Shown here: piece after piece, positions 3,618-48,267 of the stretch
Layout: each line of letters starts with the position of its first letter
Numbering within the stretch: position 1 is the first letter of the stretch
NCBI GenBank assembly: GCA_965223295.1
Contig: CBDCWC010000002.1
Coordinates: 224,001-288,000 of the forward strand
DNA from: Nitrospirales bacterium
GTDB taxonomy: Bacteria > Nitrospirota > Nitrospiria > Nitrospirales > UBA8639
Length of the DNA: 64,000 nt
Reading direction: 5' to 3'
The notes under the pieces: model-generated
The model's database searches: none
Seen by the model: only the letters and a program-made list of their open reading frames with translations
Told to the model about the DNA's origin: nothing
Program-made: the position numbers and the translations under genes

Positions 3618-3757
3618 GGGCACCTCTAAAAACTGTCCTTTTTCCCGATGGCGGCGTCAGCGGCGTGCTCAAATCCTCCTGTATTTCCATATACACCGCG
3701 GTTTTCCGCGCGCCGCTTCCTTGCCTCAGAAAAAATCATCAGTTTTTAGAGGTTCCC
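3618..3757. mobile_element. Family B miniature inverted-repeat element, copy 1
   Basis: TIR gggcacctctaaaaact/agtttttagaggttccc; near-identical to 5906-6046; flanks ataa/gtaa (3 of 4 match). Confidence 0.9.
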
Positions 3758-3770
3758 GTAAGTTTGTGCC

Positions 3771-3907
3771 TGTAACAAATGATACACATTGTTAACATAT
3801 CTGTAGCATTGTAAAGGTGATGTATTTACATGTTTATAGCAATAGATTTATAGAAGATATTGTAAATATTGATATTTTTAGTGATTTGTTTTGGCATAGA
3901 CATTGAT
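3771..3907 (+). promoter_or_regulatory. Putative sigma-54 promoter with upstream activator site
   Basis: TGTaacaaatgatACA (TGT-N10-ACA) at 3771-3786, AT-rich spacer, TGGCAtagacaTTGAt at 3892-3907 (non-canonical -12 GA); adjacent to an enhancer-binding protein gene. Confidence 0.6.
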
Positions 3908-3990
3908 GTACCTTGTTGTATGGAAATTGATATCAAGATCGTCACTGTAAACCCGTCTGATATTTTGACGAGTTGAAAGGAGAGCAAAAT

Positions 3991-4554
3991 ATGTTGAAAT
4001 CACCATTTGTCTTAGCTGCCATGTTTGTCGTCCTTGGGAATTCAGGCGTCTGGGCGGAAAGTACCAACCCAAATCACAAGGAATCTCTCAGGATGGTCAC
4101 CTTTCAAGATTTGTCAGTAACCGAGCGGGATGGAGTAACGCATCAAGAAAAGTTAGACCTTCTTCAGTCAAAGTTGCAGGAATTGGAAGCCCAAATGAAA
4201 CAGTTGCTGCCAGAAGCATCGCTTCAAGGGCAAGCCTCAAAGAATATTCCTTACGATTCCCACACTGTCAAAGTGATGCAAGGTTGGTCTTCGACTGATC
4301 ATTTACGTGAAGCCAATGTCAGTGAGCAAAACATGGTCTCTGTGGAAGAGAAGTTACAAAAAATTCAAAGCCGGCTTGATCGATTGGCTGCGAAGCCATA
4401 TTTAGATACGAAAGGCTTCAAACGTTCCGGTTTGAAAACTTTAAAAGGCCGTCTCACTCAAAAGTTGCATGAGGCCAGACAAAAAATTGCCTGGCATCGT
4501 TCACAAGCTCAAACGATTATGAGCTCAAAATCTCACCAGCCACAATCTTCCTAA
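3991..4554 (+). CDS. Exported coiled-coil hypothetical protein
   Basis: AAGGAG RBS before ATG 3991, signal peptide, helical coiled-coil character. Confidence 0.8.
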   Translation: MLKSPFVLAAMFVVLGNSGVWAESTNPNHKESLRMVTFQDLSVTERDGVTHQEKLDLLQSKLQELEAQMKQLLPEASLQGQASKNIPYDSHTVKVMQGWSSTDHLREANVSEQNMVSVEEKLQKIQSRLDRLAAKPYLDTKGFKRSGLKTLKGRLTQKLHEARQKIAWHRSQAQTIMSSKSHQPQSS

Positions 4555-4662
4555 AGCCTATCGTAAGCCAGAGCCCCTGCCGTTACCGGCGGGGGTGAAG
4601 TTTTGAAAGTACTTCAGAGAAACTCTTGGGAAGCCTTCTCCCTTAAGGTTTTTCGGAGGAGT

Positions 4663-4701
4663 GCAAGAGCTGACGCCTTAGGCGTCAGCTCTTGCTTTTT
4701 T
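4663..4701 (+). terminator. Rho-independent terminator
   Basis: Perfect 15-bp stem gcaagagctgacgcc-tta-ggcgtcagctcttgc followed by a T-run. Confidence 0.85.
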
Positions 4702-4709
4702 CAAGGGTT

Positions 4710-4899
4710 GGGTCTGTTGAAAAAAGCCGCCAGCGGCGTTCTCGCCCTTTTCCCGTGCTCACGTACTGCCCGTACGCTCCGCGCGCAACAATGGCTGTGG
4801 CCTTGCTGGACGACATTTTTGAACAGTCCCGACACTGTTGATCGCCACAGGTTTCCGGGCGAAATATGGCCCTTGATCACTTCATTATTCAACACTCCA
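4710..4899 (-). mobile_element. Family A element, full length, reverse orientation
   Basis: Ends gggtctgttgaa / ttcaacactcca; core and leader match the other copies; no target duplication seen. Confidence 0.9.
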
Positions 4900-4902
4900 C
4901 CT

Positions 4903-5838
4903 ATGCGGATGTTGCTTATTCAGGTTGTAGCGTCTGTGTTTGCATGCATCAGTTTTTCTGCTTGTGTCGGCAAATTTGAAACGAAGGACACGTTAACGGC
5001 AGAGTGCCAACGTCACTGGCAGCAGGAAGCGGGCATGGATACAGATGCGCTTCGTCATTCCTTATCTCGTGAGGGATGGCATGTCTTAGTGTGGAATATT
5101 CATGATCGGTTGTTGCCGGGATCGCTTATTTTAGGAAAAGGGCACTCGGAAGAAGACGTGGTGTGTATAGGGGATCTGGCCTCAAAGTTTGACTTGGTGT
5201 TGTTCCAAGAAGCCTTTGTGCGTCCAGCTCAGATCGCTCGCTATACCAACCATCGTTGGGCTGATCATCCTGTCTTTGAGGAAGGTGGTGGCGGGGATTG
5301 GTGGCCGTTGAGGATGATGTGTGAGATTTGTCTTACTCCAGGGCTGCTCATGCTCGCGCAGGAGGAACCTCAGTTTGTGTATGCTGAACCTTATAAGGCC
5401 TACGCTGGTTGGAATACCGACCTGAATAAAGCAGACGATTTCTTCTCAAAGGGATTTCAGCTGGTGCAATTCCCAGCCTTTTGGGTATTGAATAGTCATA
5501 TGGATTCCGGAAGAGGACAAGCCAGCATCGAGGCTAGGGTGATGCAATTTCAGCAAATTACGGCAGCTCTCAAAAGACTCGTTCCCGAGGATGCGCCGCT
5601 CCTCATTGGCATGGATTCAAATTTACGACCAGATCAAGAAGAACAAGATGAAGAAATCCTACAGAGGTTTCTTCAAGACAATGATTTGTCTTTGATGCGT
5701 CATAATGGACCAGATCTTATTGCGGCCAGATATCTTGGGCTAGAGAATGTCCAAACACTTCCCTCAGAAAACATTCTCAGCGATCATAATGCTCTGTCAG
5801 TGACAGTTTCAGTTGCCAACGAAAAACTAATAGACTAA
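4903..5838 (+). CDS. Endonuclease/exonuclease/phosphatase (sphingomyelinase-like) family lipoprotein
   Basis: LVWNI, DLVLFQE, SKG, NSHMD, GMDSN, SDH motifs; lipobox-like FSAC; start moved to 4903 because the upstream ORF extension is the repeat. Confidence 0.8.
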   Translation: MRMLLIQVVASVFACISFSACVGKFETKDTLTAECQRHWQQEAGMDTDALRHSLSREGWHVLVWNIHDRLLPGSLILGKGHSEEDVVCIGDLASKFDLVLFQEAFVRPAQIARYTNHRWADHPVFEEGGGGDWWPLRMMCEICLTPGLLMLAQEEPQFVYAEPYKAYAGWNTDLNKADDFFSKGFQLVQFPAFWVLNSHMDSGRGQASIEARVMQFQQITAALKRLVPEDAPLLIGMDSNLRPDQEEQDEEILQRFLQDNDLSLMRHNGPDLIAARYLGLENVQTLPSENILSDHNALSVTVSVANEKLID

Positions 5839-5905
5839 CGATAAAGGCGTTTCATTCGACTCTTGTTTCGTGTAGGAAGACCGGAAATATTCGAGTCAGA
5901 CTTCT

Positions 5906-6046
5906 GGGCACCTCTAAAAACGGTCCTTTTTCCCGACGGCGGCGTCAGCGGCATGCTCAAATCCTCATGTATTTCCATCTACACTGAGGTTTTCCGCGCG
6001 CCGCTTCCTTGCCCTCAGAAAAAATCATCAGTTTTTAGAGGTGCCC
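5906..6046. mobile_element. Family B miniature inverted-repeat element, copy 2
   Basis: Perfect 16-bp TIR gggcacctctaaaaac/gtttttagaggtgccc; 4-bp direct repeat TTCT on both sides. Confidence 0.92.
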
Positions 6047-6064
6047 TTCTGTGAAATCAATGTT

Positions 6065-6238
6065 TGGGCTGTTGAAAAAAGCCGCTGCTTATTCCGCCGA
6101 AGTTACTCGATAAGCTACGAAGGCTGAAAGCGGATTCGTGCAGGCGAGCGGACTTTTTGGAGTCGCCCCGAGGCTGATGGTAGCCGATGTTATCTTAAGG
6201 AAACTTATTTATGGTGTATTATGTTATTCACCACTCCC
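6065..6238 (-). mobile_element. Family A element, degenerate, core replaced by a REP-like insert
   Basis: Ends tgggctgttgaa / ttcaccactccc; 5-bp duplication ATGTT; 6066-6125 matches the reverse complement of about 14178-14237. Confidence 0.8.
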
Positions 6239-6555
6239 ATGTTGAAAGTTCGAGATGTGCTTCAAATTGACACCCCTCATTGTAATCGACCTAAGAGAAA
6301 ATTCTCTCGGAAAATTCAAAGAAAGAAATCAGTAAAATTTGTAGTAAATTTTCTCTTGGCGAAAGTATGACTGAGCATCAAGCCCCAAAGTTTTTTCTAT
6401 GCTGAAAAACATTTGGTGAGAGTTGTAACCCATAAGGGGTATCTATATTTATACGTAAAGGGTTTGAAAATAAGAAGAAATCAGGTAAAATTTTTCTATA
6501 CAGACAAAAGGTTTCTGATATCTGAAGTCGCGTACTCTAGAGAAAGGAGAAAGGT

Positions 6556-6825
6556 GTGAGTTTCAAAATCGGTGATTTCGTCATCTTCAGAAAACCGAAA
6601 AACTCAATCCATCCGACCCTTCGAGCCATACATGTTAAACCTGCTCGTCATGGAGAGACTTATCATTATTTCGTCGACAAGTTATGGAAAGTCGTCAATG
6701 TGTTCGATAATACGATTGAAATTGAAACTCGTCGCGGAAAACGCCACTGTTTAAGTATTGATTCTCCACAGCTACGTAAGGTCGGGCTTCTGGACCGCCT
6801 GTCTTTCCGAAATCGATTTTTCTAA
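6556..6825 (+). CDS. Small basic hypothetical protein
   Basis: AAGGAG RBS, GTG start, SH3/KOW-like beta composition. Confidence 0.7.
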   Translation: MSFKIGDFVIFRKPKNSIHPTLRAIHVKPARHGETYHYFVDKLWKVVNVFDNTIEIETRRGKRHCLSIDSPQLRKVGLLDRLSFRNRFF

Positions 6826-6898
6826 ATCCGGAGTTTAGCTTAACCGTATTCATCTTCCCACCCGATTTACCGTCGGTGGATTGAATGTTTGAGATGAC

Positions 6899-7780
6899 TC
6901 AAGGTTTTTTCTGTTTAGGCCAGCGTTCTTGAATGAGCTGTTCGACCGCAGACTGCATCTCTCGACATGGTAAGTGGATGCGCTCACCATGTCCCGGTAG
7001 TAACCATTCAAAGGAATAGTGGAGTAATTTTCTGACAGATTGTTCCAGTTGAGCCTCATTCCACACGAGGTTTTCCGGTGTCCCCAGTTGCTGGAGATCC
7101 CGATCCCACCATAGATGATCGCCTGAAAATAAATACCGATTCTTATATAACAAAGACATGCTGCCTGGAGTATGGCCTGGAACAGGAATACACATACATT
7201 CTGATTCGACTGGTACCGTATCCTGGCCTTTGACGATCTGTTCCGCATCCGGCATGGCATCGGCATCTGCCTCGTGGATCATACGAGTGGCTCCAAACAC
7301 TTTGGCATAGCGAGCTGCTTCAGCGACATCGTCTCGATGACTAAGAAAGATATATTGAATGCCTCCCAGATCTTCAAAAGCTTGGATGAGTTGCTTGAGA
7401 TAGCGAGGGGAATCGATTAGCCAGTTTCCCTTAGGATGTTTGATGAAATAACTGTGGGCGCCAAATGATTTTTCTGAGTTAAATCCCACATAGTACACGT
7501 TGTCTTCTAGTTTTAGTGGAAAGGAAGTTTGGGCTTTTGAGAATAGGATAGGATCGTTTTTGACGGTGCCGATGGATCCCACTGGACAGGCAATCAGGGC
7601 TTGGTACGCAGCGAATATGCCTTTTGAAGATTTTGGCTGCTGGAAAACGGTAGAATAGTTGTCGTCTTCAATAAACGTTGTGGGCGCCAATTGCCTGCAG
7701 GTATCGCAGTCGATGCAGGTGGAATCAACGAAAAAGTTCCCTTTAGCGTTGGTATCTAATCGCTTTGCCAGGTTAGCCAT
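6899..7780 (-). CDS. MBL-fold metallo-hydrolase with N-terminal ferredoxin domain
   Basis: CIDCDTC...CP, then SHRDD, PGHTPGS, FSGDH, LPGHG. Confidence 0.92.
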   Translation of the reverse strand: MANLAKRLDTNAKGNFFVDSTCIDCDTCRQLAPTTFIEDDNYSTVFQQPKSSKGIFAAYQALIACPVGSIGTVKNDPILFSKAQTSFPLKLEDNVYYVGFNSEKSFGAHSYFIKHPKGNWLIDSPRYLKQLIQAFEDLGGIQYIFLSHRDDVAEAARYAKVFGATRMIHEADADAMPDAEQIVKGQDTVPVESECMCIPVPGHTPGSMSLLYKNRYLFSGDHLWWDRDLQQLGTPENLVWNEAQLEQSVRKLLHYSFEWLLPGHGERIHLPCREMQSAVEQLIQERWPKQKKP

Positions 7781-7860
7781 GATCAGAATTTCTCATTCTT
7801 GGGAGTATACCCGTGAGTTAGAGATTCATCCACACATTCACTTTAGCTATGGAGGCATGT

Positions 7861-8295
7861 ATGCACAAGCTCACGTCTATTTTGGCCGTAGTAGTTCTGA
7901 GCGTTAGTTTTAGCGGGTGTAGTTACCTCTTCTACCCTCGCGCAGATGACTATGCTGCGAAAGCGAAAGGGGCCACGAGCGTTGATACTGTGATCAATCT
8001 CACGACGATGATGGAGGCGAGTGCGGAAGCATCGAAAGGTGGCCAGGGGTATGATCAAGCGTTAGACGATCTGCACAATCAATTTCATGCTTTTGACGAT
8101 TCGCTATGTTGTGTGGATGAAGCGAAACGGGCCACTCCCGCTTACGATTTAGCGGTAACCCATAATAAGGAACTATGGGCTATTTTTAAACGGGTCTGGA
8201 AATTTAAGGATACCCAGCCTCAACGGGATGAACATCTGGCGCTATTTAAGACAGAGGTCCAAGAACTTCGTACGACCCTTGAGGCCTTGAAATAA
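7861..8295 (+). CDS. Hypothetical lipoprotein
   Basis: GGAGG RBS, lipobox FSGC, helical body. Confidence 0.8.
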   Translation: MHKLTSILAVVVLSVSFSGCSYLFYPRADDYAAKAKGATSVDTVINLTTMMEASAEASKGGQGYDQALDDLHNQFHAFDDSLCCVDEAKRATPAYDLAVTHNKELWAIFKRVWKFKDTQPQRDEHLALFKTEVQELRTTLEALK

Positions 8296-8474
8296 TCAAG
8301 ATGTACATAGTTATCCTCCGTAGGTGGTAAACCAGTGTACGTGAATACGCTTACATCAGGCATGAGGTTGGGATGTGGAAAGAATTTTCGGACTTTGCCG
8401 TAGCGATAGATCCGTCTTAACCTCTTGTCTCATTGTTGCAAGTAAACGTTGATGAATGAGTTTGTATCGTCCGA

Positions 8475-9224
8475 TCAGGTATAGCGAGTATAGGTGCTCC
8501 GTTTAGGCGGGCGTGATTTAATGACGACCCCAAGTAATAGCCCAAGAAGTACTAAGCCGCCACCGTATACAAGCCATTCGCGTTGAACGTTTTCCTCTAG
8601 TCGCCTGTTTTGATCAGATAGTTCGTCGACTTGAGCAACTAAACGCTGGTTCTGCTTTGTAAGCTCAACGTTGAGGGTATGTTCATGGATTGGATCGGCT
8701 GATACTCGCTTCAGTTCTGCAAGTTCTTTAGTCAGGGTTTGTACCTGCGAATTCAGTGTCCGGTTGTTTGTCTGAGTTTTTGTGTGTTCAGCTTGTAGGT
8801 TGGCAAGCGCTTCGCGTTCTTTGTCAAATTTGACTTTGAGATTTTGAAGACGTTTTTCGGAAGCCGCCAGTTTAACGCGGGCAATTGGTTCCTGGACGAG
8901 ATACTGAGAGGTGACCCAACCTTCCAGTCCACCAGCCGTCCGAATTTGGGTAAACCCGGCCTCTTCGTCGATTGCGAGAATGGTCAATTGCGTCCCGCTT
9001 GGTAGTCCACGATGTAGGATGCGATGTGAGGTGGAAGGCCCACTGCGTAACGGCACATTCAATACGTCAGAGATGTAATTGGTGTCTCCAATTGCGGCTA
9101 AAGATTGTGTGGCCAGCGACAGAAAAGAAAACAATAAGAAGACGAGAGAAATCAAAATTTTCAAAGTCGGTAACCTCCTTGTATTGTCGGGTATCTCGAA
9201 AAAGGAGTTCTTCCTGCGAATCAT
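8475..9224 (-). CDS. TIGR04211-type SH3 domain protein (YgiM-like)
   Basis: YISD...LRSGPS SH3b domain, coiled coil, C-terminal TM with GGG. Confidence 0.88.
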   Translation of the reverse strand: MIRRKNSFFEIPDNTRRLPTLKILISLVFLLFSFLSLATQSLAAIGDTNYISDVLNVPLRSGPSTSHRILHRGLPSGTQLTILAIDEEAGFTQIRTAGGLEGWVTSQYLVQEPIARVKLAASEKRLQNLKVKFDKEREALANLQAEHTKTQTNNRTLNSQVQTLTKELAELKRVSADPIHEHTLNVELTKQNQRLVAQVDELSDQNRRLEENVQREWLVYGGGLVLLGLLLGVVIKSRPPKRSTYTRYT

Positions 9225-9963
9225 TGTGTGGGGTGATCACCGTGAATATGAAAGATCAATGCCCTGAAGAACCACGCGATAAGTAGCAAAGGAGACGCGA
9301 GGTGTCAATGATATCAAGCAATCGGCTCGTAAAAATAAACGGGATGCAGCAAAAAATAGTCCCATTAATCATTTTATCTTATTTGTTGCCTTCACTTTTA
9401 CTACAATCTTGGAGATTTGAAAACGCACTTCCCACTGATCTTTATCAAAATACGTTGAAATATCATTCTTAAAGCCTGCCTTAGCGCCTCTCTATTGTAT
9501 TTATGCTTCGAATACCCTGCTAGGCCTCAAGCTTTTGAATTGATGAATCACTCTTGTTAGCGATTGGTCTCAAGCTGGCAAGATCTTAGTCGAATCCGCA
9601 CTTGTTTCCTGAGCGCTGGGACGAGGTCGTTTGTGAACTAAGGATTTCTTTTTAGCCACGTATTATTGTGTGGGCTAAGATGGGGAACCACACTGCGGGT
9701 TCAGGTTCACGTCCAAGAGATAGATGATTGTTAAATAGGATAGAGGTGTTCTGTCCCGATGCATTTTAGGAAAAACACAAAGACTGCAATTTTTTGATTG
9801 ATAGAAAATTATATAAATACAGAAATAATTCATTGAGAACGATTCACGCCAATTAATGGATAGATTTGTTCGGTGAAGGATGGGAGTAAGATTTAAGTTG
9901 AATCTGCCCAAGATTGCCCTTTCTATACTTTACTTGCATCGAGAGCTCTTATGTAGGCACATC

Positions 9964-10515
9964 TCATTCTTCTTCGTCTTTTCCTTGCATACGTGTGATG
10001 AACTCACGCACATCCGGCGGTGCATTGCTGAGAAGCTCTTCATCTGTTTGAAAAGGTTTTTCTTTGAGGAAATCAGGGCCTTGCTCTTCCTCGAAAGGTG
10101 CGCCTGAGTCTTTCCCTTCCAACTCAGTCAAGACAATTTGAGTTGGAACGGCCGTGATATTTGTCTCCTCAACGCCCATTCGACGTGAGACAACTATGAG
10201 GCTTTTGACTGTGCCAGTTATTGGGTCTTTGCTCAAGGCATAATTCCATCCATTTAAGAGACGGCCAAGCCCCAATTCAAGAGGTATTTCTTCAAAGACT
10301 GCAGAAATCGTCGCTTCCGTATATTTCGATGTAGTGAAAACGGTAACATTGATCCCCGCTTCCACCTCGATCTGATTCATTACATTTGCAAGAGACGTGT
10401 TTCTGAGATTTGCGGAAAGTTTTTGTCCGTTTACACGGACTTCCGCATGGCTATCGAATGCGAAGAGTACCCATATTGTGAGTGGTACTACCCATATGAG
10501 GACAAGTTTTTTCAT
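9964..10515 (-). CDS. Exported hypothetical protein with secretin/TonB short N-terminal (STN)-like domain
   Basis: Signal peptide; 'LSANLRNTSLANVMNQI...ISAVFEEIPLELGLGRLL' pattern; acidic tail. Confidence 0.65.
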   Translation of the reverse strand: MKKLVLIWVVPLTIWVLFAFDSHAEVRVNGQKLSANLRNTSLANVMNQIEVEAGINVTVFTTSKYTEATISAVFEEIPLELGLGRLLNGWNYALSKDPITGTVKSLIVVSRRMGVEETNITAVPTQIVLTELEGKDSGAPFEEEQGPDFLKEKPFQTDEELLSNAPPDVREFITRMQGKDEEE

Positions 10516-10629
10516 AAGATCGAATATTCCCTTAGTTTAAGGTGAGATAACCATGCAATAAAGTAAAAACAGAAAGCTCCGCCCCTTATGGACATCGTGA
10601 AGTTTTTGATGTTGTGCAGTAATCCTGGC

Positions 10630-10663
10630 ATCCTCTGGCCGGTGCTTACCACGGCCAGAGGAT
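10630..10663. terminator. Stable intergenic hairpin (terminator or mRNA stabiliser)
   Basis: 12-bp perfect stem atcctctggccg/cggccagaggat between two co-directional genes. Confidence 0.55.
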
Positions 10664-10674
10664 AATCAGTTTTT

Positions 10675-11205
10675 TTAGTTGTTGTTGTTCTCCCATGCTG
10701 AATAGGATACAACCGTGAATGCTCCTACGCCTCCAATTCTTTGGGGTAGCCTACATCTTACATTGTATACTCCTCCGCTTCCGTCATAATTCATATTCAT
10801 CAAAAACACATCGCTATTTCCGCCGAAAAATTCTTCACTATTTCCTGACTCAGAATGGACAAGGTCTCCATTGAGGCCTCGGACATACGCTGTACAGGAG
10901 ATCGTGGCTTCATCACTTTGGTCTTTGACATCAATAATGACAGAGCTGAGTTTCCCACCCGATAAGGTATATGGAATCGGACAATACACAGTCAGGGATT
11001 GCGTGGTACTCTGGTTGTAAGCGCCAGATGAGGTATACCTGATATCGTTTACGCTGGAGCCACCGAAGGGTTGACACATTGTTCCAGGGTACGTCGTGAC
11101 CGTACTTTCAGCCAAGGCTGTTGCACCTTCTACGATACTGACGATCATCATCATTCCTATTACTCCATAGAACAATTTGGACACTGGTTTGAGATATTTT
11201 CTCAT
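10675..11205 (-). CDS. Secreted beta-rich hypothetical protein with four Cys
   Basis: GGAG RBS, signal peptide ALA-E, beta-strand-rich mature part. Confidence 0.8.
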   Translation of the reverse strand: MRKYLKPVSKLFYGVIGMMMIVSIVEGATALAESTVTTYPGTMCQPFGGSSVNDIRYTSSGAYNQSTTQSLTVYCPIPYTLSGGKLSSVIIDVKDQSDEATISCTAYVRGLNGDLVHSESGNSEEFFGGNSDVFLMNMNYDGSGGVYNVRCRLPQRIGGVGAFTVVSYSAWENNNN

Positions 11206-11313
11206 GATAGCACTCCCTTTTTTCTCGATCCTTAGTCGATCGATCAGTTAGATAGTTGTTTAAAAGATCTTTTCCCTTCAGATCTGCTTTGTGTGCATGC
11301 AAAATTACCTTAG

Positions 11314-11329
11314 AGCACAGATCATGCCA
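11314..11329 (-). promoter_or_regulatory. Putative sigma-54 promoter
   Basis: TGGCAtgatctgTGCT on the minus strand (GG-N10-GC), about 110 bp upstream of 11205. Confidence 0.55.
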
Positions 11330-11938
11330 GTATTGGGCAGACGTTATAGGATGCAAATATTTTGTCTGTAAATAAGGATGTTTGTGACTTTTGCCTGATC
11401 GGAAATCCATCAATGCATGATAGCTGGCAACCTCAAGATGTATCTGAACGAACAGAATTTGTATAACAAAAGGTACAGATTGTTCAGGCCTGTCTTAGAA
11501 TTTTGGCCGTGGCCATCCCATTCGCTAGTGGAGAATGATTGTCATGGGCCCTGTGATTTCTGAGTCTGATGGAATCTAGATTGACCGCACCAATAAGATC
11601 TCAATAATTGCGAAAGCAGGACAGTCCAATATGTATAAGGAGATAGAGGTCCCGAAGCAATCCGGGGAAATATATTGATTAGAATCCAGATATGACCATT
11701 GATTTTTTGAGATGAGTCAAGAAGTCGAGGGAGTAAGGCCATGAAAAACATGATAAGTTTGTCTGTGTCTATGTGATGAGAGAAATTTACACTTACCGCT
11801 TTTGGCCTCCTTCTGGGTCTCTTTCCTCAATCATCTTCAATATATCCATAGAGAGGGCGGGTGTGTTAAGTAAATATTACAGTTCTTATTAGGATTGTCG
11901 TGAAAGTAAAATATCGAAAAATTGAGGAGGACATGTGA

Positions 11939-13183: not shown

Positions 13184-13268
13184 GCTGCGAGCGACTTTCC
13201 TGTCAATGAGGTTCTGGTGGTGACTAGTTAGTTGGTCAGACTAGACAAATATATTAGAACTCTTTCTC

Positions 13269-13943: not shown

Positions 13944-14005
13944 TCACTACCAGTGGCTTTGGATAGGTTAGCATTTTCATAAAAATAGTAGCGCAGATCC
14001 GAAGA

Positions 14006-14237
14006 GAGTGGGTTGAATGCGACGACACATCAGAGGTAAATTTTCCCATGATGACGTCAGTTGCCAAGAGTCTCGGGGGCTGTTCAAAAAAATCATCCAG
14101 CAAGGCCACAGCCATTTTTGTGAGCGGAGCGTACTGCCTGTACGTGAGTACCGAAAAAGGCGAGAGCGCTGCTCACGGTCTTTGTAGACTATCGAGTTAC
14201 TTCGGCGGAGTAGGCGGTGGCTTTTTTCAACAGGCCC
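14006..14237 (+). mobile_element. Family A element with degenerate leader and REP-like insert in the core
   Basis: Inner end ggggctgttcaaaaaaa at about 14076, right end ttcaacaggccc; flanks gaaga/taaga. Confidence 0.8.
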
Positions 14238-14256
14238 TAAGAGATAAATTGGTTTA

Positions 14257-14721: not shown

Positions 14722-14736
14722 ATACTGTTATAGTTT

Positions 14737-18378: not shown

Positions 18379-18569
18379 GGGACCGTTGAGTAATGAAGAT
18401 ATCAAAAGCCATATTTCGCTATGAAGCCCTTGGCGATCAACAACCTCGGGTCTGTTCAAAAAAGTTCGTCCAGCAAGGCCACAGCTATTTTTGCGCGCGG
18501 AGCGTCCTGGCACGACGTGAGCACGGAAAAATGGCGAGAACGCGGCTGGCGGCTTTTTTCAACAGACCC
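18379..18569 (+). mobile_element. Family A element, full length
   Basis: gggaccgttgag...ttcaacagaccc; 5-bp duplication GGAAG. Confidence 0.93.
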
Positions 18570-20331: not shown

Positions 20332-20523
20332 TGGAGTGTTGAATAATGAAGATATCAAAGGCCATATTTCGCCAGGAAGCCCTTGGCGATCAACAACGTC
20401 GGGTCGGTTCCAAAAAGTCCATCCAGCAAGGCCGTAGTCATTTTTGCGCGCGGAGCGTACTGGCATTATGTGAGCACGGAATAAATGGCGAGAAGTCCGC
20501 TGGCGGGTTTTTTCAACAGACCC
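20332..20523 (+). mobile_element. Family A element, full length
   Basis: tggagtgttgaa...ttcaacagaccc; 5-bp duplication GAAAA. Confidence 0.93.
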
Positions 20524-34239: not shown

Positions 34240-34430
34240 GTGAGTGTTGAATAATGCAGATATCAAAGGCCATATTTCGCCAGGCAGTCCTTGACGATCA
34301 ACAACCTCGGGTCGGTTCAAAAAAGTCCGTCCAGCAAGGTCGCAGCCCTTTATGCGCGCGGAGCATACTGACACTACGTAAGTATGGAAAAAGGGCGAGA
34401 ACGCCGCTGGCGGATTTTTTCAACAGACTC
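34240..34430 (+). mobile_element. Family A element, full length
   Basis: gtgagtgttgaa...ttcaacagactc; flanking ATGA(G) duplication. Confidence 0.92.
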
Positions 34431-40218: not shown

Positions 40219-40288
40219 AACGGGTTTTCGCTCTTGTTTGTAGGTCTCAAGAGATCATGATCATGATGTGAAGAAAAAGGAATATTCG

Positions 40289-40570
40289 ATGGTAAAAGTC
40301 TTAATGTTTGGCCATGCTTTGCGTGAAGCTGTTGAGGATCCTGAAGTAGAAATTTCGTTGACGCAATCAATGTCGCTTCGCCAAATCCTAGAGGGCCATC
40401 CTGATCATTTTCTCGAAGTTCTCCCGTTTCTTCGCTCGCATGAACTCATGCTCACCATTAATCAAAAGATTTCCACATTGGATGCGATGGTGAAGGATGG
40501 CGATACCATCAAGATTACACATCAGGGAAGTGATCAGTCCGCAGATGGAGCCATGTGGCATAATCCATAG
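40289..40570 (+). CDS. MoaD/ThiS-like ubiquitin-fold protein without a C-terminal GG
   Basis: VKVLMFGHALRE...INQK...VKDGDTI; ends GAMWHNP. Confidence 0.75.
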   Translation: MVKVLMFGHALREAVEDPEVEISLTQSMSLRQILEGHPDHFLEVLPFLRSHELMLTINQKISTLDAMVKDGDTIKITHQGSDQSADGAMWHNP

Positions 40571-40605
40571 AACAGGCAGGAATGGTCATTTGATCAAGCG
40601 CAGGG

Positions 40606-40803
40606 TTAAGAGTTCTGTTCCTCGTCACATTTTTTGCAATTTAACAGTGTTCCTACGTAGTGCTGGCGACCTTCAACCGTTTGAACCCATGGCCGGTTAC
40701 TGAGTGGAGGGTTATGACGCACATGCTGGCCATGTCCACACTGCAGGTCAGCCACCCAATCCTCATGTTCATCTTGGTGGTATCCGATGATAGACTGATT
40801 CAC
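40606..40803 (-). CDS. DUF3565 family protein
   Basis: IIGYHQDEHEDWVADLQCGHGQHVRHNPP...RPWV...CKKC. Confidence 0.9.
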   Translation of the reverse strand: MNQSIIGYHQDEHEDWVADLQCGHGQHVRHNPPLSNRPWVQTVEGRQHYVGTLLNCKKCDEEQNS

Positions 40804-41234
40804 AAGTTTTTCCCCATGTATCGTCCGTTAGGGTGGTATGTACACCCAATTATCGTTGAGGAATAAGGTTAGAACATTGTTCCGACCTCTTGAAGGCCTT
40901 CGTTGATTTCCATGTGGGCAGCAATCGCAAGATAGCTAGAGCCAGCGATACTATTTTTGTCTTTTCTCCTCGTAAGAATGCTCCGGTTTCGCCAATGAGA
41001 AAAAGCGAGAGAACGAATAGTGAAGGACAGACAGGCACCGAAGTAATTTGGGGAGAGGGAACAACAAAAGGGACCCACAAGAAGGAGGGGAGAGTACAGC
41101 CTGAGATTATCCTGGGGAGGATAGACTAGAATAATGTAACAGTCTGTGTATCCTCAGGGTGCAAATTCCGGCTCATCCTTGTGGGTGGTCCCTAAAGGAC
41201 CGTTTCGCTACGAAGACGATGAATATTAGTAGCG

Positions 41235-41606
41235 TTACGCAACAGGGCTACAACTGAGGCCTGCGCTTTTACTTTTGGATGAGGCCAGGGGCCTGGATAA
41301 CAAGGGACGGGTCTTTTTCTTCATGGCTTCCCGTTCCGGGTGTTGACGATTTTCTAAAATGACAGGGTCGATGACCTCTCCACATTGCAAGCATCGTTTC
41401 GTGAGGATTTCCATTCCACCCGCATCATAATTCACATTCATGCACCAATGAGAAACGAGTAGGCCTCCGCAGCGAGTGCAGGAGTCAGTACTTGCTGGTT
41501 GTTCCAGTTTAACAAGAGAGGCATTTTTTATGGTTGGAACCGGCGCCAAACTTGCGGCTCGTTTCCCCGAAGTGACAGTTTTCTTTTGTATGCCGTGCTG
41601 TGCCAT
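41235..41606 (-). CDS. Small putative zinc-binding protein of a Nitrospira-type family
   Basis: AGGAG RBS; CTRCGGLL...RCLQCGEVIDPVILENR. Confidence 0.8.
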   Translation of the reverse strand: MAQHGIQKKTVTSGKRAASLAPVPTIKNASLVKLEQPASTDSCTRCGGLLVSHWCMNVNYDAGGMEILTKRCLQCGEVIDPVILENRQHPEREAMKKKTRPLLSRPLASSKSKSAGLSCSPVA

Positions 41607-41934
41607 GTTTTTCTCCTACAAGTAGTTCAAATTTCAAAAAAATCATTATAACTGATCTTTAATAGATATAGCTTGTTGTTCTTAAGTCAAGATTAACAGA
41701 ATATTAAAAAATCCTCATAATTCATACCTATAATTGAACAGAACATCAAATAACTGAATGAAATCAGTAGAAAGAGCGTAGAAAACGCAGCAACTTTTCA
41801 CAGAAAAAATATTATTATTTAAGTATTTTAATTTAAGTATATATAGCTGGTTTTATAGGCTTTTCAGATCATTCTCATTGTATCGAGTGAGTTTATTAGG
41901 GACCTAGGTCCATATTTGTATACTGGAAAATGTA

Positions 41935-42495
41935 TTAGGGCCATTGAAAATGTGTGACTGTCGGTGAGTCGGCTTGAACAATAACTGTTTTCTCAATACT
42001 CCTGCCACGTGAATCTGTTCCCCGAACGACATATGTTCCTGTCGGAATATTCATAAATAGCCAAGGCCCCTGGACCTGATCACCTGGAATGCTGAGTACG
42101 GTTTTGCCATCCTTAGTCTCCACATCAACGGAAACTCCAGCTAAATAGGCTCCTTTCCCTTGGATAAACACTAATTTCAAGGGGTATGGCGGGTATTTTA
42201 AACTCCGTTCTTCTTTGCCCAACCCTGCGCTAAAATATTGGATATTCTGCTGTTCATGCAATGGGAATTTCAGGGTTTTGGGATAATTCCCTTCAGGGAG
42301 TGGGATCTCCAGAATGTTCTTTATGGGTAAACCCGGCTCATCTGTTGCCGCCCAAGAGGGACTCCCACATAATCCGGATAGGAGGATCAGTTGAGCAAAA
42401 ACGGTTGTCCCAATAATAGAAGCATGTCTTTTATTGGGCCAGAAATCTTGTTGAGCAGGTCGTAACAAAGCAGCCAGGCTGGCTAATGTGTTCAT
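41935..42495 (-). CDS. Exported protein with carboxypeptidase-regulatory-like beta domain
   Basis: SAGLGKEER, YPLKLVF, GAYLAGV, GPWLF...P.GTY. Confidence 0.75.
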   Translation of the reverse strand: MNTLASLAALLRPAQQDFWPNKRHASIIGTTVFAQLILLSGLCGSPSWAATDEPGLPIKNILEIPLPEGNYPKTLKFPLHEQQNIQYFSAGLGKEERSLKYPPYPLKLVFIQGKGAYLAGVSVDVETKDGKTVLSIPGDQVQGPWLFMNIPTGTYVVRGTDSRGRSIEKTVIVQADSPTVTHFQWP

Positions 42496-42661
42496 CAGAG
42501 TTTCCCTCCTTTCTGAGACTTCATCGAATGCATGTCAAAGATTTTGTGATGGCCGTATGATAGCCAGTTAAAGAATAACGCAATTATTTAAATGGTCAAG
42601 ATCTCAAACGGGCAAAAATATTGAACACAATGAGTGGCGGAGGAGAAAAAAGCTTGTGAGG

Positions 42662-42850
42662 GGGACTGTTGAATAATTCAATTTCAAGTTACGAAAACGC
42701 TTTCAGTGTAGTGGAGACTTCGATGCGACGGGAATGGTCAAAAAGTCCATCCAGCAAGGCCGCAGCCATTGTTGCGCGCGGAGCGTAATGGTATGACGTG
42801 AACACGGAACAATGGCGAGAACGCTGCTGGCGGCTTTTTTCAACATTCCC
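42662..42850 (+). mobile_element. Family A element with alternative leader
   Basis: gggactgttgaa...ttcaacattccc; 5-bp duplication TGAGG. Confidence 0.92.
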
Positions 42851-42900
42851 TGAGGAGTACAAAGTGCGCCGCCAGCAATTCGGTTTAAGCGAGATGATGG

Positions 42901-44307
42901 TCAGTCCTCGTTGGAAAGAGTGGCCTTCGATAGTACTCTAGTGCTGTGTTCAATTGGTTCGAGGTCTGGAATATCTTTTCGAGGATTCACCCCAAGCTGT
43001 TTGAATTTTCTGGCAGAGGGTAAAATGCGATTTTCTAAAGACGCGACGGTCGCATTGTAGGATTCGACGGCGCGGCTGAGGGTATGACCGACTCTGGAGA
43101 AATGCTCTGCCATGGTGCCCATGCGTTCTGCTAATTCCTGGCCTAATAGACTAATGCGTTGGGAACTTTCTGCTACTTGCTCTTGTCTCCATCCAAAGGC
43201 GATGGCTCGAAGTAAGGCAATAAACGTGGTTGGTGTGGCAATGACTACTTTCTGGGTTAAGGCCGATTCGATGAGCGTTGGATCTTGTTCTGCAGCCGCT
43301 GCCAAAAAGGAATCATTAGGAATGAACAGGACTACAAATTCTGGTGCCGAGGGGAATTGCTCCCAATAGTCTTTGGATGCTAACTGACGAACATGGGATT
43401 TGACTTGGTCGGCATGTCGCTTGAGGGCTGTGGTGCGAGCTTCTTCAGTATGTGATTCCAAACTTTCTAAAAACGCGTGAAGCGGTACTTTCGAATCGAC
43501 GATGATTTCTCGTCCCGCTGGAAGCCTGACCACCATGTCAGGACGGAGTCGGCCGGTGTCGCTGGTGACGTGTTCCTGCTCATGAAAATCACAATAGGCT
43601 GACATGCCTGCGAGTTCTGCCGTCTTTCGTAATGCAATTTCACCCCATCGGCCTCGAACTTGGGGTGACCGCAAGGCATTGACGAGCTTGGAGGTCTCGG
43701 TTTGAAGTGACGACTGAGCGGCAGCCAAGTGCTTGAGTTGTTCACTCACTGAACCCAATTCACGAAGCCGTTTGTCTTCCAATGCCTTAGCTTCCTGTTG
43801 ATAGGTACGAAGAGATTCTGTGAGCGGGCTCACTAAAGCTTCAAGAGAAGTTTGGCGATGAGTGAGTTCGATGGCGGTTTCCTCTTTCAGTGCTTTGAAT
43901 TTCTCTTCGGCTAATGCTAAGAAACCCTGATTGTTTCCAGCTAAGGCTTCCGAGGCCAACGAGCGAAAAGTGTCTGAAAGGCTCTGCTTTGCCTCTTCTA
44001 ACAGTGTTCGTTGAGAGTCGAGGTGTTCTTGGGTGTTAGTTAATTTGGTTTCTGCTGAAACTTTTGCGTTTTCCATCAGACGAAATTCTTTGCAAAGCTT
44101 GTCATGCGTTTGATGCAGATCGTCCATCTGCGTTCGAAGGGCATCCAATTGAGTCTGTCTAGTGGCGAGTTGAGTTTCGAGGGCTTTCAGGGTTTCGAGC
44201 CTACGGTTTCGACAATACAAGAAGCATATGACCCAGGATAAGCCGCCAGCCGTGATAGCGCCCGCGAAGAGCCACCAAATGTGTTGGGGATCTTGAAACA
44301 CATTCAT
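42901..44307 (-). CDS. rmuC: DNA recombination protein RmuC
   Basis: N-terminal TM, coiled coil, RGRWGE, RPD, VDSKVP, ATPTT. Confidence 0.95.
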   Translation of the reverse strand: MNVFQDPQHIWWLFAGAITAGGLSWVICFLYCRNRRLETLKALETQLATRQTQLDALRTQMDDLHQTHDKLCKEFRLMENAKVSAETKLTNTQEHLDSQRTLLEEAKQSLSDTFRSLASEALAGNNQGFLALAEEKFKALKEETAIELTHRQTSLEALVSPLTESLRTYQQEAKALEDKRLRELGSVSEQLKHLAAAQSSLQTETSKLVNALRSPQVRGRWGEIALRKTAELAGMSAYCDFHEQEHVTSDTGRLRPDMVVRLPAGREIIVDSKVPLHAFLESLESHTEEARTTALKRHADQVKSHVRQLASKDYWEQFPSAPEFVVLFIPNDSFLAAAAEQDPTLIESALTQKVVIATPTTFIALLRAIAFGWRQEQVAESSQRISLLGQELAERMGTMAEHFSRVGHTLSRAVESYNATVASLENRILPSARKFKQLGVNPRKDIPDLEPIEHSTRVLSKATLSNED

Positions 44308-44458
44308 ATGAAGTCAATGAAGAGAACCAGGAAAGATGAATCAGAGTTCGGGGTTACCCACTTGTTTTCGAGAGCTGTTGCTTGGTTGAGTACCATTTCT
44401 GAAATTGTAAAGAGTATTTGGTCTCATGGGAACCCCATCACTGCAAGGACGCGATAAT

Positions 44459-44649
44459 GGGAGTGTTGAATCATGAAGATATCAAGGGCCATATTTTGGC
44501 AGGAAGCTGTTCGCTATCAATAGCATCGAGTCTGTTCAAAAAAGTCCGTTCAACAAGGCCGCAGCCATTGTTGCGCGCGGAGCATCCTGGTATTACGTGA
44601 GCACGGAAAAAGGGCGAGAACGCCGCTGGCAGCTTTTTTCAACAGACCC
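44459..44649 (+). mobile_element. Family A element, full length
   Basis: gggagtgttgaa...ttcaacagaccc; 5-bp duplication ATAAT. Confidence 0.93.
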
Positions 44650-44743
44650 ATAATTGTCGTATGCATAGACGAGTCTAGTTTTCTTGGGTACAGTAATACT
44701 AGTTGTCCCGAGTTTTGGGGGCTATGAACATTGGAGAATCATT

Positions 44744-46570
44744 ATGGAGAAAAAACATCGCGTTTCTCTGTGGTACTTCATTATCGCATTTTGGGCGCTC
44801 ATTATTCTTCAAGAAATTTATGTGGCTTCTCAACATATGGATGAGGTGCCCTATAGTCAATTTAAAGCATGGGTCCTAGACGATAACGTTGCGGAAGTTT
44901 CCATTACGGACACCATCATCCATGGAAAATTGAAAGAAGGCCGAGATGGAGACGGCTCTCAATGGTTTCAAACTGTCCGTGTGGATGATCCAGACCTCGT
45001 TCGACTGCTAGAGGAAAAGCATGTGGAATTTGCTGGGGTGGTGATCAGTACACTCTGGAAAGATGTAGCGTCTTGGGTTGTGCCGATCTTAATTTTTGCC
45101 GCGATCTGGTTCTGGATTTTACGAAAGGTTGGACAGGGTGCTGGTGGCGGGTTTATGCGAATAGGAAAATCCAAAGCCAAGGTCTATATGGAAAAAGATA
45201 TTCCGACGCGCATGAAGGATGTGGCTGGTGTGGATGAAGCAAGGGAAGAACTGTTGGAGGTCGTGGAATTTTTACGTACACCCGAAAAATATACAAAAAT
45301 TGGCGGGAAGATTCCCAAGGGAGTGCTTCTCGTCGGTCCACCCGGCACTGGAAAAACCTTGCTAGCCAAGGCGATTGCCGGAGAAGCTGGGGTGCCATTT
45401 TTTTCTATTAGCGGATCGGAATTTGTGGAAATGTTTGTGGGGGTGGGTGCAGCGCGTGTGAGGGACTTGTTCGAACAAGCTCAGGCGAAGGCGCCTTGTA
45501 TTATTTTTGTTGATGAATTGGATGCGTTGGGAAAGGCCCGGGGAACCGGTCCCATGATGCATGAGGAGCGGGAGCAGACTTTGAACCAACTGTTGGTGGA
45601 AATGGATGGGTTTGACCCTCGGGTCGGCGTGATTCTCTTAGCAGCTACGAATCGTCCAGAAATTTTGGACCAAGCCTTACTCCGTGCTGGGCGGTTTGAC
45701 CGGCAAGTGGTTGTTGATCGTCCTGATCGCGCTGGCCGGGAGGCCATTTTGGCCATTCATACCCAATCTATCAAGGTCGACTCTGAGGTGGACTTGGAAA
45801 AGATTGCGGCGATGACGCCAGGAATGGTTGGAGCCGACTTAGCGAACGTGGTGAATGAAGCCGCATTATTGGCCATTCGGCGTGGTCGAGAGACTGCGCA
45901 AGAAGAGGATTTTCAGGAAGCGGTTGAGCGAGTGATTGCTGGACTGGAAAAGAAGAACCGTGTTCTAAATGAAGAGGAACGTCGGAGAGTGGCCCATCAT
46001 GAAGTAGGGCATGCATTAGTGGCGTTGTCGTTGCCTGGTTCAGATCCCGTGCATAAAATTTCTATCATTCCTCGAGGTATTGCGGCTCTAGGGTATACGC
46101 TGCAATTGCCGACTGAAGATCGGTACCTCTTAACAAGAACAGAGCTAGAAAATCGTATAGCTGTACTGTTAGGGGGGCGTATTGCGGAGGAGTTAGTGTT
46201 TGGAGAAGCTTCCACGGGGGCCGCGGATGATTTACAGAAAGCCACGAGTATCGCGAAGCGAATGGTTAAAGATTATGGCATGAGTGAAAAGCTAGGGACG
46301 GTGAGTTTGGATGAATCAATACAACCGACATTTTTAAAAACAGCCGAACCTCATGCTGTCCCGACCTATTCCGAACATACGGCTCAGGAAATTGATTCAG
46401 AAGTGCGGCGGCTCATTGATGAACAAGGGCATCGTGTCCGAACGATGCTGACAAACCTTCAGTCTGTCTTGTTGTCGGCTGCCGAGCAACTTTTAAAGGC
46501 GGAAGTGATGACCGGTGATGAATTGCAGGCGCTTCTCTCGCCTAATAAAAAAGAACCCACTCTTCAATGA
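44744..46570 (+). CDS. ftsH: ATP-dependent zinc metalloprotease FtsH
   Basis: Two TMs, [33 protein letters not shown]. Confidence 0.97.
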
Positions 46571-46587
46571 ATCAGGCTGTCTAGTCT

Positions 46588-47520
46588 TTAGTGGTTACCT
46601 TTCCCTTGATCTTCGTGGGTTACTTGAATATCAATGACGGCGCCCTCTCGCTCTAAGGCGCGAGTGCCAAATCGATAGGTTGGCGACATGGTATTGTGGG
46701 CCATGCGCCGGTCTCGCGGTTCTGGAAATTCCATGCGAACCTTCATGTCTTCATTGCCAAGCACGACGACTTTCATATCCAAAAAGCCTGCCATGCCTGG
46801 ATGCCAGGCGACCAATTTATATACCCCTTCAGGAATGTCGGGGAGTGTGAAGTTTCCATGTTCATCTGTCACCGCGTAATACGGATTGTAAACGGCCAGT
46901 CCCCAAGCTTGCATGTACGGATGAAAGCCACATTCTATAAAAAATGTTCTGCGGCCCTGGGTAAAGTGAATGGTGTCGATCATGGCTTCGCCTGGTTTGT
47001 GTTGATGATCTTTAAGAAGATCTTTAGGATGAAAAGGGTTGAGTCGAAGTGGCCGGTGAAGCATGACTTTGGCTCCAAAGGGAGCGGTTTCATAGATCTG
47101 GACATCATGGATGATTGGGTCCATGTTTTTGATATGAATGGGTTGATGATCGCGAACCACCAGGAGCCAGGGATCGAACACACAATCTTCGACCACCACT
47201 TGGGAGGGTGGGATTTCAGAAAAAGGTTTGCCTTGATGGATGCCTTCCAAGAACACTACCGTATTTTTTAATCCGCCATCGGAGGCAACATGAAATTCAT
47301 CGATTAAGCGCCAGCCGTCGCCGGTTGAAATGCGCCCGCAAAATTCGGTGTTATTGTTGGTGATGAGTGAGAAGGCCAAGGGAGGCGGTTCTTTACCAGC
47401 GAGCACGATTTTACCGGAAATTGAGCCTCCATTTGAGACAGAAGTTTCCTTATAGGCCAAAGTTGGGGAAGAAAGGCTAATCGTCAATGCGATGGTGAAA
47501 AATCCTAACGCGATTTTCAT
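46588..47520 (-). CDS. Exported carboxypeptidase-regulatory-like / cupredoxin-like protein
   Basis: Signal peptide; GGSISGKI, C.F.P, N.DPIIH, CGFHPYMQAW, NPYYAVTD. Confidence 0.8.
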   Translation of the reverse strand: MKIALGFFTIALTISLSSPTLAYKETSVSNGGSISGKIVLAGKEPPPLAFSLITNNNTEFCGRISTGDGWRLIDEFHVASDGGLKNTVVFLEGIHQGKPFSEIPPSQVVVEDCVFDPWLLVVRDHQPIHIKNMDPIIHDVQIYETAPFGAKVMLHRPLRLNPFHPKDLLKDHQHKPGEAMIDTIHFTQGRRTFFIECGFHPYMQAWGLAVYNPYYAVTDEHGNFTLPDIPEGVYKLVAWHPGMAGFLDMKVVVLGNEDMKVRMEFPEPRDRRMAHNTMSPTYRFGTRALEREGAVIDIQVTHEDQGKGNH

Positions 47521-47798
47521 GGATCAATCCTTTGGTAAATCAGATAAAAAAGCTCTTACACACAAGCTGCTATTCTAAGGAATTCCTAAACCTCTTTTCC
47601 AGTCTTCTGTGCTGTCCCAAACATACAGAATGGATTCCTCAGTTTTAGGGCAACCCAGAACGTCTAGGCTCTAAGTCGTGAGTTTGACGCTTTCAGCGAC
47701 ATCTCTAGCAATTAGAGCTGTCGCGCTTTTCCCCATATTCCAATCACGTTTTCCATAATGGACTTGTATTATAAGACGTTTTGGCCACTTCCCTGTAG

Positions 47799-47989
47799 GG
47801 AACTGTTGAATAATGAAGATATCAAAGGTCGTATTTCATCACGAAGGCCTAGACAATCAGAAGCTTCGGGTCGGTTCAAAAAAGTCCGTCCAGCAGGGCC
47901 ACAGCCATTTTTGGGCGCGGAGCGTACCGGCAATACGTGAGTACGGAGCAATGGCGAGAACCTCGCTGGTGGCTTTTTTCAACCGACCC
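47799..47989 (+). mobile_element. Family A element, full length
   Basis: ggaactgttgaa...ttcaaccgaccc; no target duplication seen. Confidence 0.9.
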
Positions 47990-48080
47990 CTCTTGTACTT
48001 GTTCGACTGAATGTAAATATAAGCATATCTCTTGCCAAATCTTTAACAGAGCTAGATGTACCCTATGTTTTCTTGATTCA

Positions 48081-48267
48081 GCGAAACGGTAAGAAATCAA
48101 TCTCGACTATGAAAAGGCCTACAGAGCCATGATGACTTCAATTCGACGGGAATGGTCAGAAAAGTCCGTCTAGCCAGGCCGCAGCCACTTTGGTGCGCGG
48201 AGCGCTAGGACTACGTGAGCACGGAAAAATGGCGAGAACGTCGCTGGTGGCTTTTTTCAGCATTCCC
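48081..48267 (+). mobile_element. Family A element with degenerate alternative leader; left boundary approximate
   Basis: Core gggaatggtcag...ttcagcattccc at 48148-48267; upstream resembles the 42662 leader. Confidence 0.82.

Follow-up and report, generated by a model that had tools for sequence, protein, structure and literature searches.

The stretch of DNA analysed here (the window) comprises 64,000 nt of a Nitrospirales bacterium genome (GenBank assembly GCA_965223295.1, contig CBDCWC010000002.1, positions 224,001 to 288,000 of the forward strand), and contains two MITE (miniature inverted-repeat transposable element) families, A and B, which differ in their ends and carry the same internal structured core (Table 1). 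An earlier note on this DNA described a common order of sequence blocks in the two families, and rereading of the minus strand confirms it, as GCAAGG-N23-GCGTA-N7-TACGTGAG-N18-ACGCCGC in the family A hairpin at 4710-4830, and as GCAAGG-N22-GTGTA-N8-TACATGAG-N18-ACGCCGC in the family B element at 5906-6046. The similar version pointed out at 3618-3757, also on the minus strand, is a near copy of 5906-6046 with the one-base variant TACAGGAG. The pattern GCAAGG-N(20-26)-GYGTA-N(5-10)-TACRTGAG has three matches in the window (4758-4806 and 5964-6012 on the minus strand, 14100-14148 on the plus strand), and none in 100 dinucleotide-preserving shuffles of it. Family B ends have four matches in the window, accounted for by two elements, and A-like ends have 26, compared with 3.3 expected. 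The shared-motif observation is real and statistically solid.

Table 1. Miniature elements in the window. Positions count from the first letter of the window; R1 is the covariance model of the core, and X the module that precedes the family A hairpin.
Feature	Position	Strand	Parts	Flanking duplication	R1 match to core	Other support
Family B MITE, copy 1	3618..3757	-	140-nt whole-length hairpin; core 3646-3728		29.5 bits, E 7.2e-5	B profile 132.9 bits; element fold -67.4 kcal/mol, z -8.0
Family A unit	4710..4898	-	hairpin 4710-4830, core 4728-4810, X 4831-4898	no clean duplication	97 bits	fold -52.4 kcal/mol; loose ends of public contigs at 4709/10 and 4898
Family B MITE, copy 2	5906..6046	-	141 nt; core 5934-6016	TTCT (4 bp)	24.6 bits, E 1.1e-3	element fold -75.4 kcal/mol, z -9.86
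Family C element	6066..6168	.	A-like ends, unrelated interior without core		no match at E up to 10	
Hairpin chimera, A core and C end	14076..14237	+	A core 14096-14177; without X		72.5 bits	
Family A unit (X + hairpin)	18379..18569	+	core 18469-18551	GGAAG	91.5 bits	
Family A unit	20332..20523	+	core 20422-20505	GAAAA	80.5 bits	
Family A unit	34240..34430	+	core 34330-34412	ATGAG, one-base boundary shift	83 bits	
Family A unit	42662..42850	+	core 42750-42832	TGAGG	90.3 bits	
Family A unit	44459..44649	+	core 44549-44631	ATAAT	73.2 bits	
Family A unit	47799..47989	+	core 47889-47971	no exact duplication	75.1 bits	
Family A hairpin without standard X	48148..48267	+	core 48169-48249		70 bits	

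The relationship between the two families was examined with a covariance model (R1) built from family A cores only, with the ends excluded, and run against the window with all filters off. R1 recovers the nine A copies at 70-97 bits, and also matches both B copies over their full length and on the correct strand (29.5 and 24.6 bits), the best other match in the window being at 11.2 bits (E 2). Family B copies in other genomes score 14.1-38.5 bits, and five loci with B-type ends and an AT-rich interior give no R1 match at E up to 1. A profile of family A that uses sequence alone, on the other hand, fails to detect the B cores even at E 10, so that it is the structure-aware model alone that connects the families. 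The view that the motif belongs to no known Rfam family also holds, with no match at gathering score over the whole window (Rfam 15). At E up to 10, a search of positions 3550-6250 yields noise and a terminator-like match at 4629-4734, and nothing relevant. This match covers a strong intrinsic terminator at 4663-4695 (15-bp stem and T run), which ends the upstream gene ~14 nt before the A unit, and runs ~25 nt into the terminal repeat of that unit.

The shared core is a structured module of ~83 nt. Its outer helix consists of CCAGC paired with GCTGG, followed by two unpaired A residues and by GG paired with CC. GCAAGG/ACGCCGC had been taken for an internal loop in the earlier note, whereas the folds show it to be helical, with GC-AA-GG opposite CCGC and the two A residues bulged out. 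The internal loop, asymmetric and nearly invariant, is instead formed by CCGCAG on the 5' side and GAGAAC on the 3' side. The middle helix is free in sequence while staying paired, the junction contains a short motif of tandem G.A/A.G (by reading) beside a conserved G.U (GU in 81 of 104 sequences), and the tip consists of a conserved helix, GCGTAC/GTACGT, and a variable loop. Family B has in common with A the outer helix, the bulge, a GCGCGC/GCACG segment and the GGA/GA junction, and differs in the replacement of the distal middle helix by a shorter one and in an extra helical segment before the tip, with a further hairpin 3' of the tip in the longer B variants. A hammerhead ribozyme, considered on account of the sequence CTGATGA in B, was rejected by reading, as its helices are a poor match, B variants do not keep the heptamer and Rfam is silent.

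RNAalifold on a plain MAFFT alignment gives a weak consensus (13 pairs, -0.44 kcal/mol), and a structure hand-drawn from individual folds was used instead and then tested with slid-partner and shuffle controls. The core alignment contains 43 A cores without ends (nine from the window and 34 from loci of four genera), in which 85.9% of cells are paired, a share that drops to 27.9-43.1% once the 3' partners are displaced by 1-3 columns, and in which the covariation score is 0.244, compared with 0.118 in shuffles and reached by none of 500 of them. Ten of the 13 middle-helix pairs change on both sides in this set. The result is similar for 104 distinct sequences from across the class, with 84.1% of cells paired (27-46% when slid) and 12 of the 13 middle-helix pairs covarying, for example CG 46/UA 46, GC 55/CG 33 and AU 47/GC 36. 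The outer and tip helices, with their conserved sequences, show hardly any covariation, which is concentrated in the middle helix. The core is a real fold.

Family profiles were used to search the genome that contains the window (3.78 Mb, three contigs, 47% G+C), with motif counts serving for the census (R1 on this genome was run to 150 scored candidates, all A). Family A has 278 non-redundant matches, 207 of them full-length (121 nt), spread in hundreds along both large contigs and dispersed singly, while family B has 48, of which 42 are full-length (141 nt). Tabulated by element type, the tip motif is present 98 times in A, 35 times in B and twice elsewhere, and exactly two chassis therefore carry it in this genome.

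The boundaries of family A are not those of its hairpin. The 121-nt hairpin lacks a duplication at its own ends in 196 of the 207 full-length copies, and in 181 of the 207 it is preceded by a 69-nt module, X, which starts with the end-like sequence GGG..TGTTGAATAA. The resulting X+hairpin unit of ~190 nt has ends of the GGG..TGTTGAA type at the X start and at the hairpin end, and both arms of the hairpin likewise begin with end-like sequence. Allowing a one-base boundary wobble, the 181 units are flanked by duplications of at least 5 nt in 113 cases, 4 nt in 19 and 3 nt in 8, with none in 41; within the window, X is present at seven of the nine A hairpins, five of which have an exact 5-bp duplication. 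Public-run contigs that contain other copies diverge from the window at 3617/8, 4709/10, 4898 and 6047/8, which are unit boundaries, and display no empty site. The mobile unit of family A is therefore ~190 nt and not 121 nt, and the 5-bp duplications attributed to family A in the earlier note exist around this unit, and not at the ends of the hairpin nor cleanly at the copy it cited.

Several further features of the window relate to family A. The 3' part of the chimera at 14076-14237 matches the reverse complement of the start of the family C element at 6066-6168. The iterated profile of family C merged with family A through the common ends (123 of 145 matches overlapping A). A 69-nt sequence at 1133-1201, 80% identical to X at 4830-4898 and with no hairpin reported adjoining it, is possibly an X module on its own. 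With regard to a bidirectional intrinsic terminator (a GC-rich stem directly followed by a U run, with an A run before it for the other strand), runs of A and of T are seen, by reading, on either side of the base of the hairpin; a simple terminator scan flagged none of the elements, their stems being long and interrupted. Elsewhere in the genome, a protein of ~145 aa is encoded between two A units (positions 551-985 of locus L224; G000:C3:1233250-1233684, where G000 denotes the genome of the window). Only the N-terminal helix-turn-helix part of IS630 transposases is matched (90.6 bits, below the cut-off of 100). The gene is single-copy and is shared, at 79-89% identity, by 18 of the 24 genus genomes. 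A decayed IS630 transposase was rejected on account of this single-copy conservation, and the protein looks like a domesticated DNA-binding domain.

Family B has terminal inverted repeats of 16 nt, and the 4-bp duplication reported for it is borne out, being exact and AT-rich in 28 of the 42 full-length copies (5 bp in two, 2 bp in two and none in ten). Its mobility is demonstrated by an empty orthologous site in the closest relative searched (G016), where ATAA occurs once at the position that reads ATAA, element, GTAA for the copy at 3618-3757. Family B is present in 9 of 24 genomes of the window genus and in none of 16 from three other families. All 43 B-ended elements below 400 nt in the window genome bear the core, intact or damaged. 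Two B copies of ~95 nt (G000:C3:760030-760124 and C2:38281-38374) have lost the tip and the middle of the core and have kept the ends and outer helix. With regard to replication, the GCAAGG-first strand of B lies on the strand of negative GC skew in 34 of 45 copies (p 0.0008), a bias that may reflect counter-selection of whichever of the two hairpins is more stable on the lagging-strand template.

The earlier note assigned the two kinds of ends to different families of insertion sequence (IS), and in this respect it does not hold. A full-length IS with B-type ends was found in a genome of the window genus (L244; 1253 bp, duplication GTTA), and one whose ends equal the left end of the Nitrospiraceae-type X was found in a genome of that type (L241; 1316 bp, duplication TTAG). 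Both encode IS5-family transposases (283.9 and 278.9 bits, respectively, against NCBIfam NF033581, cut-off 140 bits), which are 24% identical and thus represent distinct lineages of one family, and both kinds of ends have the format GGG-N7-AAAAA in common. The Nitrospiraceae-type ends read CAGG.TGC..AAAAA, and 25 of 36 X+hairpin units of this type have identical 4-bp flanks (CTAG 14, TTAG 5, CTAA 3, ATAG 1, CTAT 1, TTAA 1) that resemble YTAR, the classic IS5 target. No parent was found for the A-type ends of the window genus itself. A Tn3-like reading, suggested by the GGG ends and the 5-bp duplication, was dropped once the IS5-family parents were found. The elements thus display the features of IS5-derived MITEs, namely terminal repeats, a duplication of fixed length, full-length parents (for B and the Nitrospiraceae type) and an empty orthologous site, the last for a B copy. 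R1 scores at most 8.5 bits inside L244 or L241, which excludes the core as a subterminal part of either parent. The window genome has a single DDE_Tnp_1 match, and 70 are present in another genome of the same family (G179), both genomes having many core copies.

As to how family B came to contain the core, the blocks GCGCGCGGA and TGAGCACG are common to B and the A type of the window's family, while the Nitrospiraceae type has different, compensating sequence at these positions. A natural chimera (L225; G000:C2:925764-925944) consists of the left half of B and the right half of A, joined exactly at GCGCGCGGA. In three further genomes of the window genus, the B ends and first 27 nt are combined with an unrelated AT-rich interior of 99 nt. 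The common blocks and the chimera suggest that the B core derives from an A-type core, acquired by descent or recombination, and would not be a convergent motif. The families are modular, with X, the hairpin core and the A, B and C ends recombining, as the chimeras attest. The same blocks and chimera, with their testimony of common descent or recombination, are also what would be expected of a neutral relic, in which the motif is common to A and B merely because the B interior descends from A and the blocks have not yet mutated, and the failure of the sequence-only profile on B indicates that the similarity is indeed small. This explanation is already disfavoured and appears highly improbable, since the blocks are nearly invariant across the class and compensating pairs replace the helix that lies between them, since a variable loop and helix stand beside invariant blocks in the 207 A copies, and since an orthologous copy of the element, described below, is more conserved than synonymous sites.

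The distribution of the core extends well beyond the window genus. BLAST with the A hairpin finds matches in 35 of 41 genomes of relatives, including all 24 of the genus. In a sample of the class Nitrospiria (whose named members are Nitrospira and Nitrospirales), R1 detects the core in 110 of 151 genomes, from 11 of 18 families, including 19 of 25 and 51 of 53 genomes in the two large families f1 and f2. In a sample of the phylum (n=151), it has matches in 26 genomes, only three of which lie outside the class. Exact A-type blocks, searched with one genome per species, are found in at least 116 stretches; among the 80 matches listed, 77 are labelled Nitrospira, Nitrospiraceae, Nitrospirales, Nitrospirae or Nitrospirota (including Ca. 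N. defluvii), and the other three are one 'uncultured bacterium' and two short contigs labelled Nitrospinota. The latter (L145 and L172, public contigs of ~2.5 kb) contain a typical element with GGGAATGTTC-type ends as in the window's family, and are likelier to be mis-binned short contigs than to represent a second phylum. No exact matches are present in viral contigs, and the A unit is not matched in plasmids. Between genera, the core is less variable than the ends. A single lineage of IS5-derived miniature elements, present in most of the class, is the native home of the module. Literature searches found no paper on these elements in Nitrospira, and the passages retrieved from two papers (PMC12542641 and PMC12306157) are unrelated to them. 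The class-wide element is absent from Rfam and from the literature searched.

Two observations bear on the selection of the fold and on its strand. Among the 207 A copies, departures from consensus Watson-Crick pairs include 359 G.T and 199 A.C, with G.T more frequent in 27 pairs and A.C in 10, and the class-wide set contains 63 G.T and 33 A.C (p 0.003, in an alignment fitted by a model of that strand). Since transitions make both variants equally and the copies lie in both orientations, this excess argues for selection on the fold of the GCAAGG-first strand. Secondly, in six species of a sister genus with small genomes (1-7 scored matches each), a copy occupies the same site, immediately behind the rplW stop codon and ahead of rplB. 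At this locus the hairpin has a mean pairwise identity of 0.89 and the core one of 0.92, compared with 0.50 for the adjacent spacer, and with 0.75 (rplB) and 0.73 (rplW) for third positions of codons for the same amino acid, a constraint that is not explained by selection on transposing master copies. Together with the recovery of B by a model trained on A only and with the covariation, the G.T excess and the slowly evolving orthologous copy sustain the central proposal of the earlier note, of a selected single-strand structure on two miniature chassis.

The strand evidence also bears on a host site acting at the level of DNA, in which the palindrome would be bound as a duplex or cruciform by a nucleoid protein or a replication or repair protein, with a chromosomal role such as that proposed for REP/BIME elements. 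The intergenic location of the elements without gene-orientation bias, the hundreds of copies along both large contigs, and the replication-related orientation bias of family B are compatible with a site of this kind. It is nevertheless quite improbable, as duplex binding needs no covarying helix, does not predict a G.T excess on one strand, and is not reflected in family A, which is evenly split with respect to replication (129 versus 121 copies, direction taken from GC skew).

A purely selfish role would explain other parts of the data. In this case, the hairpin would aid transposition, through a cruciform or fold-back that joins the ends for the IS5-type transposase or through recruitment of a host factor, conservation would reflect the repeated selection of mobile master copies, and B would have gained the module because it raised mobility. 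B with the core has 48 copies in the window genome and 13 matches in G016, whereas the core-less AT-rich form is a single match per genome, and the presence of the core or a damaged version of it in 43 of 43 short B-ended elements, the end-like sequence at the start of both A hairpin arms, and the lack of an orientation bias in A, which fits no host function, all agree with such a role. We consider it unlikely, because the conservation in place of the rplW-rplB copy is left unexplained by master copies, because a cruciform uses both strands and predicts no asymmetry of G.T over A.C, and because the ends are more variable between genera than the core. The core is moreover found in 110 of 151 class genomes, against 18 of 151 for the one candidate transposase tested (L241-type, E <=1e-20), which has no match at this threshold in any of 25 genomes of the window's family.

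The best explanation of the data, to which we give a probability of about 0.5, is an IS5-element-borne module that was moved to B by recombination and whose one-strand fold is a protein-binding platform. The module is native to IS5-derived elements and resides, in the window genus, in the ~190-nt X+hairpin unit of family A. Recombination within the genus would have placed it in a second IS5-derived chassis, giving rise to family B, which would then have transposed in the lineage of the window. The fold of the GCAAGG-first strand would be under purifying selection as a binding platform for a putative conserved trans-acting factor, the conserved bulge, loop and tip serving as contacts and the middle helix as a spacer, and binding would probably affect RNA ends, stability or processing near the element. 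On this model, the putative binding fold is more likely to act as RNA than as transient single-stranded DNA.

Several points weigh against the protein-binding platform. Copies within a genome are related, so that the cell counts of the covariation analysis overstate the number of independent events, and alignment A2 is fitted to the structure of the model. Family B alone has no significant G.T excess (60 G.T versus 45 A.C, p 0.17), and gene conversion involving the other copies might produce the appearance of purifying selection at rplW-rplB, where, in addition, the operon mRNA carries the strand opposite to the G.T-favoured one. In tandem gene contexts, 83 A copies are co-oriented with the genes and 70 opposed, and the replication split quoted above is similarly balanced; convergent contexts, with 26 and 24 copies, show no orientation preference either. 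A host function tied to one strand, in mRNAs or on the lagging-strand template, would not be expected to give this balance. A promoter within X would reconcile the orientation facts, but the candidate (TTGAAT-N18-CATATT) is weak, was not flagged by a scan and has, by reading, no conserved counterpart in the Nitrospiraceae-type X.

A related and more tentative possibility is that the core is an independent, class-specific structured RNA or folded single-stranded DNA module with a conserved protein partner of its own, for which miniature transposons would be the vehicles and copies such as that between rplW and rplB, within the ribosomal protein operon, would be host-domesticated. Able to change chassis through recombination, it would in this case represent a new bacterial structured-RNA family, with copy numbers in the hundreds in the genomes of nitrite oxidisers.

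In soils, oceans and wastewater plants, nitrite oxidation and complete ammonia oxidation are performed by Nitrospira and related bacteria, and to our knowledge very little is known of their non-coding RNA or genome architecture. Regardless of its function, the element described here is class-wide, has strong covariation and reaches hundreds of copies in some genomes, and it accounts for assembly breaks at these repeats in these genomes. The bulge, loop and tip, being conserved, are a ready-made bait for a binding partner. The natural variants, in which the core is borne by either of two chassis, is missing from one of these or has lost its tip, are a controlled test of the interior of a miniature transposon, and their comparison bears on whether that interior serves the mobility of the element or the host.

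Among known systems, the closest are the IS5-derived MITEs, which likewise have terminal inverted repeats, a 4-bp duplication at AT-rich or YTAR targets, no coding capacity and a matching full-length IS. The elements described here differ in that the interior is a conserved structured module, found in neither parent, carried on two chassis and conserved above the ends across the class, and in that the duplication made by the A unit of the window genus, for which the search yielded no parent, measures 5 bp and not 4 bp. The REP/REPIN elements with RAYT transposases (PMC3116915 and PMC3337134) are similarly abundant hairpin repeats with long vertical persistence and are candidates for single-strand recognition. 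By contrast, the present elements have target-site duplications and DDE-type parents. Membership of the REPIN/RAYT system was rejected because of these duplications and because, among six Y1_Tnp matches in the search, the two that are RAYT-like are not flanked by elements, the nearest A copy being ~2 kb away. The two RAYT-like Y1 genes are located at G000:C3:407710-408477 and C3:1175465-1176142 (PF01797, 54 bits); IS200-like copies are present too, and none is flanked by A or B.

Integron attC sites have R''/R' boxes (RYYYAAC / GTTRRRY) and occur in cassette arrays next to an integrase, whereas, by reading, the ends of the present elements do not fit this box consensus and the copies are dispersed singly (no search for an integrase was made). 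The Correia elements of Neisseria and the ERIC/IRU elements of enterobacteria are miniature palindromes proposed to function, upon transcription, as RNA hairpins, and resemble the present ones as imperfect palindromes over their whole length of 100-200 nt, intergenic and in many copies, with a hairpin on either transcribed strand. They have no sequence relation to them, and Correia or ERIC/IRU elements are not known to have an internal module that moved between chassis or is conserved across a class. The BOX elements of Streptococcus pneumoniae are modular repeats in which modules occur in varying combinations, as X, the hairpin core and the A, B and C ends do here. They too are unrelated in sequence, and the elements of Nitrospiria are distinguished from them by the strong covariation support for their core and by its class-wide range.

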